From a virus: 64,000 nucleotides of DNA. Of this stretch, positions 6,398 to 57,904 are shown one piece after another. Both the position numbers and the translations under genes were made by a program. The notes under the pieces were generated by a model, which was not told where the DNA came from, searched no databases, and worked only from the letters and a program-made list of their open reading frames with translations. The stretch's first letter is position 1, and each line of letters starts with the position of its first letter. The stretch lies in IMG/VR virus record IMGVR_UViG_3300032245_001163; one strand, 5' to 3'.

Positions 6398-6670
6398 TTA
6401 TTCTACGGCTTCTTCCAAATAATAACCACAGTGCGGATTGTTTAAAAAAAACTTGGGCTCTGAAGGATAGATTCGGCAACCTTCGTAACGAGTGTTGTAT
6501 ATGGTGCATTTGAGAGTCACATCTGGATCTTGATTGTAATACTGGCACCATTCCGTAGTATAGGTGGTGGCGTCTGAGTAGACTTTAAACAAACAACAAG
6601 CACTGCCACAGCCGCCTGCAGGATCACAACTGCCACGAACTACAGGGTTGATCCAAACAATCTTGGACAC
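6398..6670 (-). CDS. Small Cys-cluster protein (YkgJ/CxxCxxCC-like)
   Basis: C...CGSACC...C...CTIYNTRYEGCRIYP pattern; GTG start immediately after the upstream stop. Confidence 0.6.
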   Translation of the reverse strand: MSKIVWINPVVRGSCDPAGGCGSACCLFKVYSDATTYTTEWCQYYNQDPDVTLKCTIYNTRYEGCRIYPSEPKFFLNNPHCGYYLEEAVE

Positions 6671-6671
6671 A

Positions 6672-8210
6672 TTAGACCCAGGCCAGATAAGTTAGATCAA
6701 ATGCTGAAGTGGTGATGGCACCACCAGTGGTGTTTTGTAATTGTATGCCCAGAGTGTTGGCAGTTGATGGATATGCGGCTGAGACAAAAATACCTGCATT
6801 TAAATTTATAGCAGGAGTAACAATAACTTTGTGACTGGTGGTTAGGCCTGTGACTGTGACTGTGACGTTTACACTTGTGGTATTTTTAGCAATGACCTGA
6901 CTTGGTATGTTTGCTTGGCCTGTTAGGAATGTGCCTGCTGTGGATGAAGTATTGACTGTTAAATTGGATGCTGAACCAACTAGGTTACCGGTAAATTTTG
7001 CGGCTGTGACATTGCCACCAGTGATGTTGCCTGTGGCTGAGACCAAACCACCAGTTAGTATGTTGCCACCCGTGATGTTGGCAGTGACATTTACCAGACC
7101 ACTAGTCAAAACGTTACCGCCTGTTATGTTGCCTGTGGCTGAGACCAAACCACCAGTCAAGACATTGCCACCTGTGATATTGCCAGTGACACTTACCAGA
7201 CCACTAGTCAAAACGTTACCGCCTGTTATGTTGCCTGTGGCAGATATGGTGCCAGCAGTGGTAAATTTAGTTGCATTCACACCATTGGCTGTGGTAATAT
7301 TGGCCACATCCACTCTGGCATTGGCATCACTGCCCACAGGAGTAACTGTAAACACCAATTGACTGCCTTGGGCTGTGGTGGTTTGATTTTCCAATGCAGT
7401 GGCTCGAATCTGTGCAAAAGCAACATTGCCTACTCCTGCATTGGTGGCTGCAGTGGCGTTGAGACGAAAAACATCTTGTCCGGCCAGGACCTGTGTGGGC
7501 ACAGACACATTGCCGTTGAATCTGCGAGTGACCAGGCTCACATAATTGTCATTGCCGTCAAAATACAATCTATTTGGTATGCTCAACTGTCCAGTAACAT
7601 GCAACATGGCACCAGTTTGCCCGGGAGGTATGCTGTTTCCACTTGTGGATCCAATGATTCGTATTGCTCCATCGGCATCGGCGGTTGGAATGTAAAAAGT
7701 TACTTGACCATCTTTATTGAATTCTGCATACCGGTTGGCAGTGTTGGGTGGTAACCCATCAGGCTTGTAAAATCCCACATTACCAATAAGTTGAACTTCG
7801 GCATTGCCACTGGTAATGAGAATCATGTTCTCATCAACGTTGACAATACTCAAAACATTGTTGCTGGCAGTGAAGTTACCAAATGATATTGGCAGGTTGG
7901 CAGAGTTAATGGTCAGCTGTCCAGTGTTGCCAATTACCACTCCTGGGCCAGGAAATATACCACCAACTTTGTTGTTGCCTGCAGGCGAAATATTGCCCAG
8001 CACCACAAGATTGCCTGTGATGGTGGCTGTGTTCAGTGTGACATTGGCAGTGTTTGCAACACTTATGGGCACACCGCCGGCTGTGTTGCCATCGCTGGAG
8101 TAAAATGCATTGGTGTCTGGATTCCACCAGATTCGACCAGTTTGTCCAACATAGGTCACACTGTTGGCGTTGTTGTCTCGGCTGGTGAAAATATTTTGGA
8201 TGAAACTCAT
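6672..8210 (-). CDS. Fibre/spike-like virion protein with 17-aa GNITGGN repeats
   Basis: N-terminal YVGQTGRIWWNPDTNAFYSSDGNTAGG (fibre attachment-type motif); tandem GNITGGNVLTxGLVSxT repeats. Confidence 0.7.
   Translation of the reverse strand: MSFIQNIFTSRDNNANSVTYVGQTGRIWWNPDTNAFYSSDGNTAGGVPISVANTANVTLNTATITGNLVVLGNISPAGNNKVGGIFPGPGVVIGNTGQLTINSANLPISFGNFTASNNVLSIVNVDENMILITSGNAEVQLIGNVGFYKPDGLPPNTANRYAEFNKDGQVTFYIPTADADGAIRIIGSTSGNSIPPGQTGAMLHVTGQLSIPNRLYFDGNDNYVSLVTRRFNGNVSVPTQVLAGQDVFRLNATAATNAGVGNVAFAQIRATALENQTTTAQGSQLVFTVTPVGSDANARVDVANITTANGVNATKFTTAGTISATGNITGGNVLTSGLVSVTGNITGGNVLTGGLVSATGNITGGNVLTSGLVNVTANITGGNILTGGLVSATGNITGGNVTAAKFTGNLVGSASNLTVNTSSTAGTFLTGQANIPSQVIAKNTTSVNVTVTVTGLTTSHKVIVTPAINLNAGIFVSAAYPSTANTLGIQLQNTTGGAITTSAFDLTYLAWV
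7091..7241. repeat. Exact 49-bp direct repeat (7091-7139 and 7193-7241) within a 51-bp-period coding repeat array
   Basis: ttaccagaccactagtcaaaacgttaccgcctgttatgttgcctgtggc occurs twice, 102 bp apart. Confidence 0.9.
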
Positions 8211-41631: not shown

Positions 41632-42402
41632 TTATGCATCGTATCTGTTGATCTGCGCCAATGTGATATTGGTTTGTGCAGTACCAGACTTGATAGCAGT
41701 CTCGCCTTGATCAAAGAAGTTGGCCAAATAACGAATACGCTGAACAACTGAGGCAGCGTCATATGTATTACCGCCGGTCCAATCCAAAGCGTACTTGTTG
41801 GTAAGTTTGCTTACACGAGTGGTTGCACTGTCGCCAATGTCCATGGTAATGGTCATATTGCCAGCAGTCAATGAGGAATTAGCTTCGTTGCTGAGTGTGC
41901 AAATTCCCACCAATTGCACTGTGCCTGTGCCTGTGCCCACACCAGTGGCTGTGAAAATATCACCAATTACAACACTGCTGGTTGGGCCGCCGATTTCAGA
42001 CCAAGGTGTAGTGCCAGTGGTTAACACACGATATGTATTGCCGGCCACTGTTGATGTGGCATTGATTGAAGTCAATGCTGCCACTTTGTACTGATAAGCA
42101 CCTTTTTGTGTGATGATAAATCCGTCGTCTTCTGATCCGCCAGTAATGTACACGCGAATTTTCACTGTGGGGTAGTCAGCACCGGTTAGCACCATGGCTT
42201 GACCGGGCACAGTGTTTGAACCACCCACAACACCAAAGTATTGTGCATTGGTATATGTGGCAGGTTTTACTGGTGCGGTCAGTTGTCCAAAAATTGGATA
42301 TGCTGAATCCACTACAACAGGCACACCAAGGCCTGCAGAAGTGCTAGTACCGGTATCACCAGAACCAAGAGAGTATTGTTGAATTTTAAGAGGACGTCCC
42401 AT
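41632..42402 (-). CDS. Hypothetical virion protein, possibly capsid-associated
   Basis: 256 aa, strong AAGGAG SD, own late promoter and terminator, near the capsid gene. Confidence 0.7.
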   Translation of the reverse strand: MGRPLKIQQYSLGSGDTGTSTSAGLGVPVVVDSAYPIFGQLTAPVKPATYTNAQYFGVVGGSNTVPGQAMVLTGADYPTVKIRVYITGGSEDDGFIITQKGAYQYKVAALTSINATSTVAGNTYRVLTTGTTPWSEIGGPTSSVVIGDIFTATGVGTGTGTVQLVGICTLSNEANSSLTAGNMTITMDIGDSATTRVSKLTNKYALDWTGGNTYDAASVVQRIRYLANFFDQGETAIKSGTAQTNITLAQINRYDA

Positions 42403-42498
42403 TTTGTTTTCTCCTTAAAGAAGTCCGATGCGAGTTCTAGTCGCTACGCGGCGGGTTAAACCGCATAAAACGCATTATTGCGTTGACTTTTATTTATA
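42403..42498 (-). promoter_or_regulatory. Late promoter TATAAATA plus structured multi-hairpin 5' leader
   Basis: TATAAATA at 42498-42491; hairpins AACGCA/TGCGTT, GCGG/CCGC and GCGA/TCGC closed by AAGTC/GACTT. Confidence 0.55.
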
Positions 42499-54175: not shown

Positions 54176-54517
54176 ATGGATTTATACACAATTTGGGCAG
54201 ACAAAGAAGGAGACATCTCAGATATTGACTGGGTCAACGGAATGAAAAGTTTCTTTGATCATCTAGTCGAAGAGGGCCGAATGGAAACCTATAGAATCAC
54301 ACGTTGCAAAATGGGGTTCCGTAGTATTGCAGACATGCCTGAATGGATGATCATCATGGAGTTCCGAGACATGGGCCAAATGGATAGTGCATTCAAACGT
54401 GTTGCTCCACTCAAAGGCGATCTCGAAACAAAACACAAAAGTTTCAATCAGTTTGTTAGTGGCAACATTCAACATGCACTGTTTAGAGACTGGCCAGATA
54501 CCAACTTAGACGATTAA
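54176..54517 (+). CDS. Small dimeric alpha-beta-barrel-like protein (DUF6614-like)
   Basis: YRITRCKMGF...IMEFRDMGQMDSAF...LFRDWPD; GGAG SD. Confidence 0.55.
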   Translation: MDLYTIWADKEGDISDIDWVNGMKSFFDHLVEEGRMETYRITRCKMGFRSIADMPEWMIIMEFRDMGQMDSAFKRVAPLKGDLETKHKSFNQFVSGNIQHALFRDWPDTNLDD

Positions 54518-54898
54518 AGATCTCTAACGAGATCTGTTGATTTCACTTCGTTCATCAACTGATTGTCTTCTAAGTATCATCTAGATACTGTGGTCACAAT
54601 TCACCGTATGCACGGTGAATTGAATGCATCATCTGAGTGACCGCAGTCATCTATTTTAAAGAGATTGTTGTTTCCAACACGGAGGCGGTTGACCGGTACC
54701 CCCTACTCTAGCTTCACATATCAACGGAACCCTAGTAACCCGAAATAGATCCAAGTCCTATGAGCAGGGGTTGCTTTTTCTCATTGCCCCAACCATTTGC
54801 TGCCTTAAGTTAACAGTTGCCTTTGACACCCAAGTCTGCACCGGGTATCGCACCGTTGCTCAATGGGGTTGGGTCAAACACCCAACACAGAGTCGTGA
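54518..54898 (-). ncRNA. Candidate large structured non-coding RNA (~380 nt)
   Basis: The only large intergenic gap in the window; at least 8 helices, a GAAA tetraloop, G-U pairs mostly on the minus strand, and an 8-bp loop-to-distal pairing. Confidence 0.6.
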
Positions 54899-55327
54899 TT
54901 AAATTTTATCTTTGATGTGTGAGCCATGTACACGTACTTGTATATGGCCGTTGTAATAATCTGTTGATTCCAATACCTTCCTACTGAATTGTTCGCGGGC
55001 TTCAACATAACTGCATTCTGCCTTGCTTTTACAATAGTAAAGTATTTCTCTGGAGAAGTTTTCGGTGCCTAGTTTGATTACGTCTGCGGTCAATTCTGGG
55101 CTTGACCCATAGTACTCACGCCAGTCTGAATCGACTTTTGTTCGTATCTTTTTCTTCTTTTTGATGCCGTTCTTTTGATTTACTGTCTTGTACGTTGTTT
55201 TACTAAATTTCGCTAATTTTTTGCCTATGTACTTGCGTCCAGATAGATTATTTGTGATCTGATAAACAAATCCCACACATTCTTCGGGTAGTGTCTCAAC
55301 TGGGGTGTCTTGATAAAACCATGTCAT
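54899..55327 (-). CDS. Minimal GIY-YIG endonuclease (Seg-like)
   Basis: GFVYQITNNLSGRKYIGKK, YYGSS, FSREIL, E...YYN. Confidence 0.85.
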   Translation of the reverse strand: MTWFYQDTPVETLPEECVGFVYQITNNLSGRKYIGKKLAKFSKTTYKTVNQKNGIKKKKKIRTKVDSDWREYYGSSPELTADVIKLGTENFSREILYYCKSKAECSYVEAREQFSRKVLESTDYYNGHIQVRVHGSHIKDKI

Positions 55328-55369
55328 GTGCTTTTTGGGAAATGCCTTTCGTGTTATAGTTATGCTGCC

Positions 55370-56431
55370 TTAGTATAATTGGAGATTTTTCAAGAGATTT
55401 TGATTTTCGTATAACATGCCTAAATTGTAGCGGTTTTGCTGTTCGTTGTAGCGGCTTAGATAGTTTGATTCTTGCTGTCTGCCTGTATTTGTATAGTCGT
55501 TGCCCAGGCCAAAATGCACAACTCCTGTAGGTTTTAACCCCAGTCGCTCGCACCAATGACGCTGTTGATTTAGATATTTGTACACCATGTAGTCCACAGG
55601 AAACTGCTGTATTAGACTCATGGCCAAGCCAGCACTGAGCCGGTTGCAGATGTTTTCATCATTGCTCATCTGCATGGGATCGCTGGGTTTTTGTTTTAAC
55701 ATACGCACAGCAATCTTGGCGGTTTGCACAGGAAACGTTTTGCTGAGACTGAATGTGATTTCTTTGATGCAATCTGCACTCAGGTCAATGTTCACAACAT
55801 TGACACTGTTGGGCAAGTAGATAAAGTCCACCAACAGATCCACGCCTTGACGATTGCACTGTTCTACCAGCCACTTGAAACGTTCATGTTCTTGTCCGGT
55901 TAGTGCAAATGGCAGGCTGCATATACACGCATCGCCTGGCTGTATGTCAAAGTCATCGTCGATGTACTTCCAGTTGAATCCGGCCTTCTGCCAGATCTCC
56001 ATGTGCCACCAGTAATCGCCACGAAACACTCGCAGTCGTTTGTCTTTGTGCATCATGTACCAGTTCAGGAATGATTCTTGTGTGCCTTGTGAAAACCCCA
56101 CGTATTTGAACTGATCCAAGTTGTGCAATCTGTATGCAGTGCCAGACGCAATCCATTCAGGAAATGCTTCTTGAAACTCATCAACAATCCAACAGTTTCG
56201 CAAATGCTCACTCAAACTTAAACTGTTTACAAAATCAATCACTGTCTGATCTTTGATAGCATTGCCACTGCTGAATATGCTGTGGCCACGTGCTCGCACT
56301 TCCCAGAACTTGGAGTTCTTGGGGTAGGCCCACACAAACTCGCCAGGCGTGTCCAAGCAGTCTTCAGCACTGGCCTTGGCCAAAGCCCAACTGATTCGCC
56401 GTATTAGATTGATTTGTTCAGCAGTCTGCAT
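55370..56431 (-). CDS. PLP-dependent fold-type-I enzyme (aminotransferase/decarboxylase-like)
   Basis: GTQESF, LVDFIY, FSLSKTF (Schiff-base Lys). Confidence 0.75.
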   Translation of the reverse strand: MQTAEQINLIRRISWALAKASAEDCLDTPGEFVWAYPKNSKFWEVRARGHSIFSSGNAIKDQTVIDFVNSLSLSEHLRNCWIVDEFQEAFPEWIASGTAYRLHNLDQFKYVGFSQGTQESFLNWYMMHKDKRLRVFRGDYWWHMEIWQKAGFNWKYIDDDFDIQPGDACICSLPFALTGQEHERFKWLVEQCNRQGVDLLVDFIYLPNSVNVVNIDLSADCIKEITFSLSKTFPVQTAKIAVRMLKQKPSDPMQMSNDENICNRLSAGLAMSLIQQFPVDYMVYKYLNQQRHWCERLGLKPTGVVHFGLGNDYTNTGRQQESNYLSRYNEQQNRYNLGMLYENQNLLKNLQLY

Positions 56432-56889
56432 GCTCTCACATAACTTTCGTAATCTTCAGACCAGTTGGGATCATTGCCATTGATCTCATGCCTAGTACGC
56501 AGTATCCAACGCAATGCAGGAAGTTCAAATGCAATGCGCCATGTGCCATTCTTACCAAAGAACAAACATTTGTCCAACACTGTGCCGTCATCACAGTGAT
56601 ATGCACTGTGCCACTTTAGTTCTTGCAAGTCGTAGCCATCTATTTCAATGGTGTCCAGTTCACAACTGCGGTCTTGCACAATCGCACCGTCAGCAACCAC
56701 AGTATCTGTTGAAGGATCTTTGTCATAGTGTTCAATGCTCAAATTTATCTTGTTGTCCACAGGATGACATTGTAGCATGATCAACGGACACACTGAGTTT
56801 TCAAACACCACAGCGTCATTGATCACAATGCGTATGCGGGGCAACCCGTTGCAGTCTTGTATATTTTTAAATTTCAATGCTAAGTTCAT
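56404..56889 (-). CDS. Hypothetical beta-rich protein (paralog of 57892..58449)
   Basis: HYDK...IVQD...IEIDG...FGKNGTWRIAF. Confidence 0.7.
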   Translation of the reverse strand: MNLALKFKNIQDCNGLPRIRIVINDAVVFENSVCPLIMLQCHPVDNKINLSIEHYDKDPSTDTVVADGAIVQDRSCELDTIEIDGYDLQELKWHSAYHCDDGTVLDKCLFFGKNGTWRIAFELPALRWILRTRHEINGNDPNWSEDYESYVRACRLLNKSI

Positions 56890-57904
56890 GGCGACAAAAA
56901 GTCCTAAACAAATCCCAGTGTTGATACACTCGGTTCACACAAATACGATTTACAAACAAGGAAGGATCAAAGTCCAGTTGATAAGATTTCAACAGTTCTT
57001 TACGATTGTAGCGATCCCAAGATTGATCACCAATGCCAAAGTTTACACTGTTGGTGGACTGTAAGTCAAATACTTCACATACAGTTTTATATTTACTCTG
57101 CCGACTGGTATAAATCCAGTCTGATTTAAAGTTGTCTAATAAAACGTTTCCTATCAAGGCACCCACATTGTTGTTGTAGCCAATGCTGTGATGCAGTCGT
57201 TGTCCATCAAATGTGCCCGGACGAGTGTATCGCATGCCTATTCGGGCAGTGCCCACAGGCCAGGCCTTGCTGAGAGAGAACGCCACAGTGTCTATGCAAG
57301 TATAACGCAAATCAATGTGTAAGTCATGACTAATGGGCCAATAGCACAGGTCCAACAGCACAGGAATGTTCTGTGCATCGCATATGGACATTATTCGGTC
57401 ATAGTTTTCGACTAGCGCCACAGTGTCGCAAAATGGCACACTTAATACTAAAGCATCGCCGGGCAACAGTGGATCTGACTCATCAATAAAACTCCAATCC
57501 GCATTGCCACTTATCCAAGTCTTGAGATGATAAAAGTATTCGCCCACAAAGCAACGAAAGCGTCTGTGTCTGTGTCTAAAGTAAAAACTATCAAAAGCCT
57601 GTGTGCTGCCTTCGCTGTAGTCTGGCTCGTATTCATCCAATCCTACGATGGTGCTGGTGTTGTGGCTTTGAATCCAGCCAGCAAAACGTTGCTCTAACTG
57701 TCGCAGTTGATCACTGCTGTTGGCAGCACGGACCACATCGTCAGGCCGGATTGATGCAGCCAGCACAGTTTCCACAGCAGGATCTCTATCCACTCTACTG
57801 CCAATGTAATAGCCATTCACTGCCGAACGCACAGCCCAAAAGTCAGCATTGGGGTTCTGTGCCTTGGCCATGGCGATAGCAAACTGTCTGCCTATGTGTT
57901 CCAT
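56867..57904 (-). CDS. PLP-dependent fold-type-I enzyme (paralog of 55370..56431)
   Basis: GSTQAFD, GEYFYH, LLDLCY, FSLSKAW, RIGMRY. Confidence 0.78.
   Translation of the reverse strand: MEHIGRQFAIAMAKAQNPNADFWAVRSAVNGYYIGSRVDRDPAVETVLAASIRPDDVVRAANSSDQLRQLEQRFAGWIQSHNTSTIVGLDEYEPDYSEGSTQAFDSFYFRHRHRRFRCFVGEYFYHLKTWISGNADWSFIDESDPLLPGDALVLSVPFCDTVALVENYDRIMSICDAQNIPVLLDLCYWPISHDLHIDLRYTCIDTVAFSLSKAWPVGTARIGMRYTRPGTFDGQRLHHSIGYNNNVGALIGNVLLDNFKSDWIYTSRQSKYKTVCEVFDLQSTNSVNFGIGDQSWDRYNRKELLKSYQLDFDPSLFVNRICVNRVYQHWDLFRTFCRHELSIEI

Follow-up and report, generated by a model that had tools for sequence, protein, structure and literature searches.

The Polynucleobacter-1 motif (RF01718) was described in 2010 from 16 examples, which came from fresh-water and estuary samples and from one Polynucleobacter genome. 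It was noted in "no sequenced purified phage" and classed as a possible cis-regulator, and the supplement places it directly downstream of a GOS11034 / PSSM2_218-like gene family (Weinberg et al. 2010, PMC2864571). We found no account of the motif in the literature after 2010. Here we examine a structured RNA in a 64,000-nucleotide stretch of viral DNA (IMG/VR record IMGVR_UViG_3300032245_001163; hereafter, the window), which belongs to what we call type A of an extended Polynucleobacter-1, or twin-box, family. Its sister RNAs of type B, which contain Polynucleobacter-1, share with it a core and a 3′ domain, as well as the genomic place and the freshwater habitat, and the host genus of Polynucleobacter-1 is likely to be the same as that of the window phage. 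The two differ in that the Rfam model represents other 5′ helices and only the first third of the molecule, the window RNA scoring no match to it, and in that the description of 2010 contained neither the core with its two pseudoknots, nor the twin boxes, nor T4-like phage genomes.

To our knowledge, few RNAs of unknown function are both large and multiply knotted, and those that are have time and again opened up new biochemistry. In this regard, the window RNA recalls GOLLD and ROOL, RNAs of phages and prophages that are likewise large, intricately folded and of unknown function. It differs from them in that no sequence or model match connects them, in its size, which is about half of theirs or less, in not lying beside tRNA genes, and in its twin boxes. 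A further resemblance, from which no membership is claimed, is to guide RNAs such as the omega RNA of IscB and TnpB or the bridge RNA of IS110, where a structured RNA also lies beside the gene of a DNA-cutting or DNA-joining enzyme and short variable words are set in a constant scaffold. However, there is no IscB, TnpB or IS110 gene at the window RNA, its neighbouring enzyme changes between phage and bacterium and is separable from the RNA, and no complementary target for the words was found in the RNA or its flanks.

A structured RNA between convergent genes

Positions 54518–54898 of the window form a 381-nt gap between convergent genes, in which the longest ORF is 43 aa. The gap is bordered on one side by the stop codon of a DUF6614 gene (54176–54517, plus strand), and on the other by a GIY-YIG gene of 142 aa (54899–55327, minus strand; SegE_GIY-YIG, phrog_447), which is thus the upstream neighbour of the RNA. 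A first, sequence-only reading of the window had proposed that this ORF-poor gap, behind the GIY-YIG stop and on the same strand, holds a large structured non-coding element, and both parts of the proposal stand. The minus-strand fold of the gap reaches −123 kcal/mol (z −3.7 against shuffles), the plus-strand fold being weaker (z −2.5). Both flanking genes have hundreds of relatives in IMG/VR; 160 loci were fetched, and blastn recovered from them 56 distinct full-length copies of the RNA at 71–99% identity. In their alignment (A1, type A), long invariant stretches are broken by helices that vary on both sides, and conservation is highest in the internal loops and junctions.

RNAalifold applied to A1 gave 81 pairs, 30 of them compensated. 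A model refined by mutual information and a stack search comprises 94 pairs in 17 helices, with 94.7% of the cells paired as compared with 33–46% when the partners are slid by 1–3 columns. Compensatory changes, with both sides altered, occur at 37 of the 94 pairs, and none of 500 shuffles reached the observed covariation score. In the minus-strand reading G-U cells far exceed A-C cells (521 versus 27), which assigns the RNA to the minus strand, on which the GIY-YIG gene also lies. A long-range GUCA/UGAC helix proposed by RNAalifold shows no variation on either side and is missing from type B, and it was left out of the model. The RNA is found in a single copy per phage genome. From these comparative data, we conclude that a real gene, present once per genome, occupies 54518–54898 (minus strand), its predicted transcript being a structured non-coding RNA of ~380 nt with two pseudoknots.

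Kinship with Polynucleobacter-1

The window RNA itself matches no catalogued family. When the whole window was scanned with Rfam 15 at gathering scores, no family matched the gap, and a scan of 54300–55500 at E ≤ 10 gave no match to RF01718 (gathering score 37 bits), to a ribozyme or to an intron; the sole weak match is one to Atu_C9 (17 bits, E 0.047), on the opposite strand and within the coding region of the GIY-YIG gene. ARAGORN, run on the window, makes no call at the RNA, and the first impression that the element is not a tRNA, tmRNA, RNase P, SRP or group I/II RNA agrees with both programs. Searching 50,697 GenBank phage records by blastn with the window region and with a type B RNA gave no match.

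Nearly all of the 160 loci contain an A1 profile match on the strand of the GIY-YIG gene; many of these matches begin only at profile position ~175–200 or 254. These partial matches correspond to sister RNAs with a different 5′ part, namely types B and C. Type B is matched by A1 at E 1e-13 to 1e-20 and, in the reverse direction, a profile of type B from which the window was left out matches 54530–54713 (minus strand) at E 1e-20 (nhmmer). The covariance model R1, which was built from type A only over element positions 184–326 (element position n = 54899 − window position), scores all of the type B RNAs at 44–92 bits and type C at 16–28 bits. A permissive Rfam scan of ten sister loci detects RF01718 at 70–118 bits in the type B loci, where it coincides with the first 141 nt of the RNA, so that a known Rfam family is matched by the homologues and not by the window RNA itself. 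With regard to the upstream gene, the motif starts 10–50 nt past the GIY-YIG stop codon in every type B locus, and the window RNA right after the stop codon of a member of the same gene family, which may correspond to the PSSM2_218 family of 2010.

Because its core and 3′ domain are homologous to those of sister RNAs whose 5′ third is Polynucleobacter-1, the window RNA is, as judged from the profile matches, a 5′-domain-swapped variant of an "extended Polynucleobacter-1" RNA, with its 3′ two-thirds homologous to type B. On the same grounds, the catalogued motif covers no more than the initial third of a larger RNA, of which the form present in the window is uncatalogued.

Type C has the last ~130 nt alone in common with the window RNA, uses the box word ACAUGA and gives no Rfam match. 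It is found in gaps of ~470 or 720 nt after the GIY-YIG gene (loci L001, L007, L014, L020, L023, L025, L028, L095, L101, L104, L108, L116, L117, L141 and L147), and some copies carry a recurrent ORF of 58–60 aa on the opposite strand.

Architecture and twin boxes

As derived from the alignments, the architecture is that of a five-helix 5′ domain found only in type A, followed by a conserved core (H6, PK1, H7, H8 and PK2) and then by a 3′ domain, all of them on the minus strand. Counts were taken from the per-type and covariance-model alignments. On the R1 alignment of types A and B (59 RNAs), 98.3% of the cells are paired, versus 42–51% when slid, and 18 of the 23 pairs are compensated. A joint MAFFT alignment of the two types, in which H6 and PK1 are shifted by three columns, was excluded; the compensatory changes of both pseudoknots are seen again in a MAFFT alignment of type B only, which was fitted to no structure.

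The 5′ domain (54764–54891) occupies the place of the Polynucleobacter-1 domain of the sister RNAs and comprises helices H1 (54868–54886), H2/H3 (54829–54867), H4 (54800–54816) and H5 (54767–54790). Compensatory changes are present in H1 (6 of 7 pairs), H2, H3 and H5, while RF01718 finds no match in this domain at E ≤ 10 and the type B profile does not align there.

In the core, hairpin H6 (54733–54760) has 10 pairs with 99.8% of the cells paired, and in type B 11 of its 12 pairs are compensated. Its loop, AUCUAUU (54744–54750), is the 5′ strand of PK2 and pairs with AAUAGAU (54649–54655). This loop contact had been seen in the window sequence (ATCTATT/AATAGAT), and the relatives substantiate it: C-G is replaced by U-A in 7 type A sequences, and in type B 95.5% of the cells are paired, versus 16–50% when slid, with double changes at 4 of 6 pairs. 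In PK1, GUUGAU (54720–54725) pairs with GUCAAC (54688–54693) in the loop of hairpin H8; here, U-G changes to C-G in 9 type A sequences and to U-A in 1, and in type B UCAU/AUGA or UCGU/ACGA replaces UUGU/ACAA. In H8 itself (54681–54703), 99.1% of the cells are paired and compensation across types A and B affects 3 of 6 pairs; the AACCGCC of its loop is family-wide, bacterial copies included. Helix H7 (54660–54709), formed by AGAG (54706–54709) with CUCU (54660–54663), encloses H8 and hairpin H9 (54667–54678). All four pairs of H9 are compensated, as are the four of H7 across types, where the first pair is UA in 19 cases, AU in 17, CG in 11 and GC in 11.

The 3′ domain consists of two tandem segments, each with (G/A)UGAC, a spacer, AYYY, a 7-letter box and a hairpin. 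It resembles two tandem modules, since each box comes after (G/A)UGAC and a short spacer and before a hairpin. Hairpin H10 (54599–54620), between the boxes, is invariant within type A, and a comparison of types A and B shows 7 of its 9 pairs compensated, UUCACCG/CGGUGAA being replaced by UUUGCCC/GGGCAAA in the latter. Hairpin H11 (54536–54559) has 5 of 6 pairs compensated, and the terminal hairpin (54518–54535), which coincides with a terminator-like call on the plus strand, varies in sequence while the hairpin is kept. H11 and the terminal hairpin are likely to constitute the 3′ end of the RNA and a predicted two-way terminator between the convergent genes.

The helices first read from the window sequence fared unevenly. 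GTTGGGT/ACCCAAC (H1), GGGGGT/GCCTCC (H8), TGTTG-GAAA-CAACA (H9), the hairpin at 54597–54622 (H10) and the two terminal hairpins recur in the relatives. By contrast, GATACCCGG/TTGGGTGTC, TGAGCA/TGCTCA and CAACGG/CCGTTG are not kept; their segments pair otherwise, in H2, H3 and PK1, and as drawn these helices are specific to the window sequence or to its minimum-free-energy fold. The 11-bp outer helix that had been placed around the perfect hairpin, that is, between the two box spacers around H10, is likewise not kept, the register of this candidate varying and only 68% of its cells being paired in the relatives.

The recurrence of AGATGA, observed three times in the window by the sequence-only reading, is confirmed, and two of the copies turn out to be twin boxes that co-vary. 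Box 1 (ACUC + AGAUGAU + G, 54627–54638) and box 2 (AUCU + AGAUGAU + A, 54575–54586) carry the same word, lie 52 nt apart in the window and flank H10; across RNAs the spacing ranges from 49 to 59 nt or more. Of the 59 R1-aligned phage RNAs, 55 have the same word in both boxes, with 9 words in use, as compared with 10 on average, and a maximum of 19, when box words are re-paired at random. The bacterial RNAs (see below) have identical words in 15 of 19 cases and use seven other words, e.g., AGCGAAA, AGAGAAA and AUCAAAA. Complements of the box word are not enriched in the RNA or its flanks, with 0.14 sites per RNA for its own word versus 0.23 for foreign words. Boxes that change in step would imply a partner that is read twice, and this partner would be the natural way in to the function; the identity of the boxes could also have a structural rather than a binding cause.

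Genomic setting and possible function

The neighbour genes mark the phage as T4-like: they include a gp46-like SbcC subunit (phrog_77, E 1e-107) and a baseplate hub gene, together with a B12 radical SAM cassette. The source is an uncultured giant T4-like lake phage. Complete relatives measure ~346 kb and have terminal repeats. One close relative (L012, record G296) is a complete genome of 346,856 bp with direct terminal repeats, in which the RNA is single copy, and the group is therefore placed among the jumbo T4-like phages. The segment from gp46 to the RNA is a variable region, since relatives carry one or two paralogous pairs or other cassettes there; in the window, two tandem paralogous gene pairs (353 aa + 161 aa and 345 aa + 185 aa) are found at 55370–57904 (minus strand), upstream of the GIY-YIG gene. 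At some distance, the window also contains a freshwater-2 RNA (RF02980, 73.8 bits) at 42400–42485 (minus strand). This RNA precedes a minus-strand gene and closely follows a TATAAATA late-promoter box (42491–42498).

The GIY-YIG protein is a predicted nuclease that matches Pfam PF19835 (E 1.9e-32, residues 3–129 of 142) and phrog_447 (E 8e-37), a family common among Kyanoviridae and other T4-like phages, for which the label "NAD synthetase" is wrong. It consists of the catalytic domain alone, with a Lys-rich insert and no DNA-binding domain, just as had been read from its translation. A search against PDB sequences gave no meaningful match, and the closest cultured relative is from Methylophilales phage Melnitz, at 48% identity. 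A sigma-70-like site lies within the last GIY-YIG codons (−35 at 54927–54932, −10 ending at 54903); the frequency of such sites near the RNA start is not above that of shuffles. Many relatives (L154, L156, L123, L109, L157, L128, L012 and others) have a short leader that is conserved, AUAGGCARC, just before GAC(U/A)CUGUG and 5–20 nt ahead of the RNA, and type B RNAs have a comparable leader, CAGGCAGU. The window RNA is without AUAGGCARC, and the GIY-YIG stop codon directly abuts it.

Related RNAs are also found in bacterial chromosomes. A 22-nt word from the 2010 alignment led to five Polynucleobacter loci, all five of which score for RF01718. In total, such RNAs are present in 17 of 151 Polynucleobacter species genomes, in one or two copies each, and in 2–3 of 151 genomes of the wider family, a distribution that makes the RNA accessory rather than housekeeping. 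The copy of Polynucleobacter asymbioticus QLW-P1DMWA-1, which bears RF01718, is situated at about 2,130,770–2,131,300 (locus L180/L190). The bacterial copies are part of a fixed cassette (loci L164–L190, e.g., L190:8141–10826), in which a divergent DUF6641 gene is followed by the RNA, sometimes by a 258-aa ORF, and then by a recombinase gene. The DUF6641 gene encodes 145 aa and lies ~150–200 nt upstream of the RNA in 25 of 25 loci, and the recombinase, of 188 aa, has the tyrosine recombinase catalytic domain only. No GIY-YIG gene was found near the bacterial copies, the DUF6641 family is absent from five related phage genomes, and no tyrosine recombinase was found in the phage genomes. By eye, the bacterial RNAs can be seen to have an H6-like hairpin whose loop makes its contact, a PK1 in which GYUUY/GAARC compensation occurs, the AACCGCC loop and both boxes. 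Neither nhmmer nor R1 links their 3′ parts to the window, and they are tied to it by this architecture, as seen by eye, with type B as a bridge. BLAST of the window element against 241 Polynucleobacter genomes gave no match, and type A appears so far to be confined to phages.

In one locus, L167, the box-1 region recurs as an inverted copy of 28 nt (71% complementary; 6619–6646 and 6930–6957), at a distance of 283 nt downstream and immediately ahead of the recombinase gene. This inverted copy is missing from the other bacterial loci, and an invertible segment for the bacterial recombinase was discarded as a candidate. The same applies to a defence-island context, for which PADLOC gave no match beyond a weak AAA, and to DUF6641 as an RNA binder, its AlphaFold model (pLDDT 80) having no PDB fold match and the ESM Atlas returning DUF6641 clusters only. 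A contig binned with Polynucleobacter (L179, contig C80 of MAG G264) has at 1055–1935 a full type B RNA behind a GIY-YIG gene of 61% identity. The contig is probably that of a phage, and its binning fits Polynucleobacter as the phage host genus.

Taken as a whole, these observations are best explained by a free-standing, trans-acting extended Polynucleobacter-1 RNA whose twin boxes bind one partner twice, a reading to which we give a probability of about one half. The RNA would be made as the tail of an early transcript ending at the convergent junction, because its start invariably follows directly on a stop codon, whichever gene lies upstream, and its fold and terminal hairpins would keep it stable. 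Free-standing, it would then act in trans, with its two identical boxes each binding a copy of a common partner, which would be a protein dimer or else a short stretch of nucleic-acid sequence. This partner would differ between lineages and would not be the GIY-YIG nuclease.

The sequence-only reading had considered the nuclease as the partner, in the form of a nuclease-RNA ribonucleoprotein in which the RNA binds the GIY-YIG protein and supplies target specificity or restraint. In nearly all of the 160 phage loci the GIY-YIG gene does have the RNA downstream of it, the original description noted a link to an upstream gene family (Weinberg et al. 2010, PMC2864571), and a protein whose catalytic domain, with its Lys-rich insert, is not accompanied by a DNA-binding domain, beside boxes that behave like programmable words, would suit such a particle. 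However, in ~10 distinct relatives 1–1.8 kb with other genes (a 337-aa ORF, or a B12 radical SAM gene and a 140-aa ORF) separate the two, the RNA then starting right after the stop codon of the intervening gene. Moreover, phages Melnitz, ACP17 and P-HM2, whose GIY-YIG homologues are 40–48% identical, have no such RNA beside the gene and no R1 match, and the box word varies while the protein stays 70–95% identical. Since genes intervene, distant cultured phages are without the RNA and bacterial copies are without the GIY-YIG gene, an obligate nuclease-RNA pair is disfavoured; we regard the particle as quite improbable, and the adjacency is better read, from the loci compared, as synteny within one freshwater T4-like phage clade. 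A broader version, in which the RNA is a programmable adaptor whose twin words specify a nucleic-acid site, e.g., symmetric half-sites, is a long shot. The enzymes so addressed would be the GIY-YIG nuclease in phages and the 188-aa tyrosine recombinase in Polynucleobacter, both of which neighbour the RNA and are without a DNA-binding domain.

Other explanations dispense with a partner of this kind. A cis-acting 3′ element, be it a terminator, a stabilizer, a regulator of the early operon or a barrier between early and late genes, with no function in trans, is unlikely, and it is the alternative that we take most seriously. Its class would be that proposed in 2010, a possible cis-regulator (Weinberg et al. 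2010, PMC2864571), and it would account for an RNA that always abuts a same-strand stop codon and has a hairpin end at a convergent junction. Yet ~330 nt and two pseudoknots far exceed what termination needs, conservation peaks in internal loops and junctions, and the Polynucleobacter copies have no preceding gene on the RNA strand. The size, the two pseudoknots and the long invariant junctions recall large ribozymes, and the knotted core might catalyse self-cleavage, processing or ligation; no Rfam ribozyme or intron matches even at E ≤ 10, however, flanking exons are absent, and a wholesale swap of the 5′ domain between types would hardly be tolerable for a catalytic core, so that a ribozyme seems improbable to us. 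Least probable of all is an element acting at the DNA level, as a structured single-stranded origin or with the boxes as paired protein sites on double-stranded DNA. Although the boxes are direct repeats ~50 bp apart and a recombinase gene adjoins the bacterial copies, G-U strongly outnumbers A-C in the strand comparison, the pseudoknots covary, the spacing of the boxes is variable, the phage genomes have no tyrosine recombinase, and an inverted box copy near the recombinase gene exists in one locus only. The single-stranded origin, one of the initial suggestions, is made unlikely by the Rfam relatives and by the independent RNA-gene context in bacteria.

The RNA is abundant, since uncultured giant T4-like lake phages carry it on hundreds of contigs, and an alternative domain can take the place of its 5′ third without loss of the core. 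As RNAs bearing RF01718 are present in the chromosomes of culturable Polynucleobacter, genetics and pull-downs are feasible without phage isolation. If the twin words were indeed to act as an adaptor, the RNA would represent a new RNA-guided DNA enzyme system common to giant phages and to islands of their hosts.
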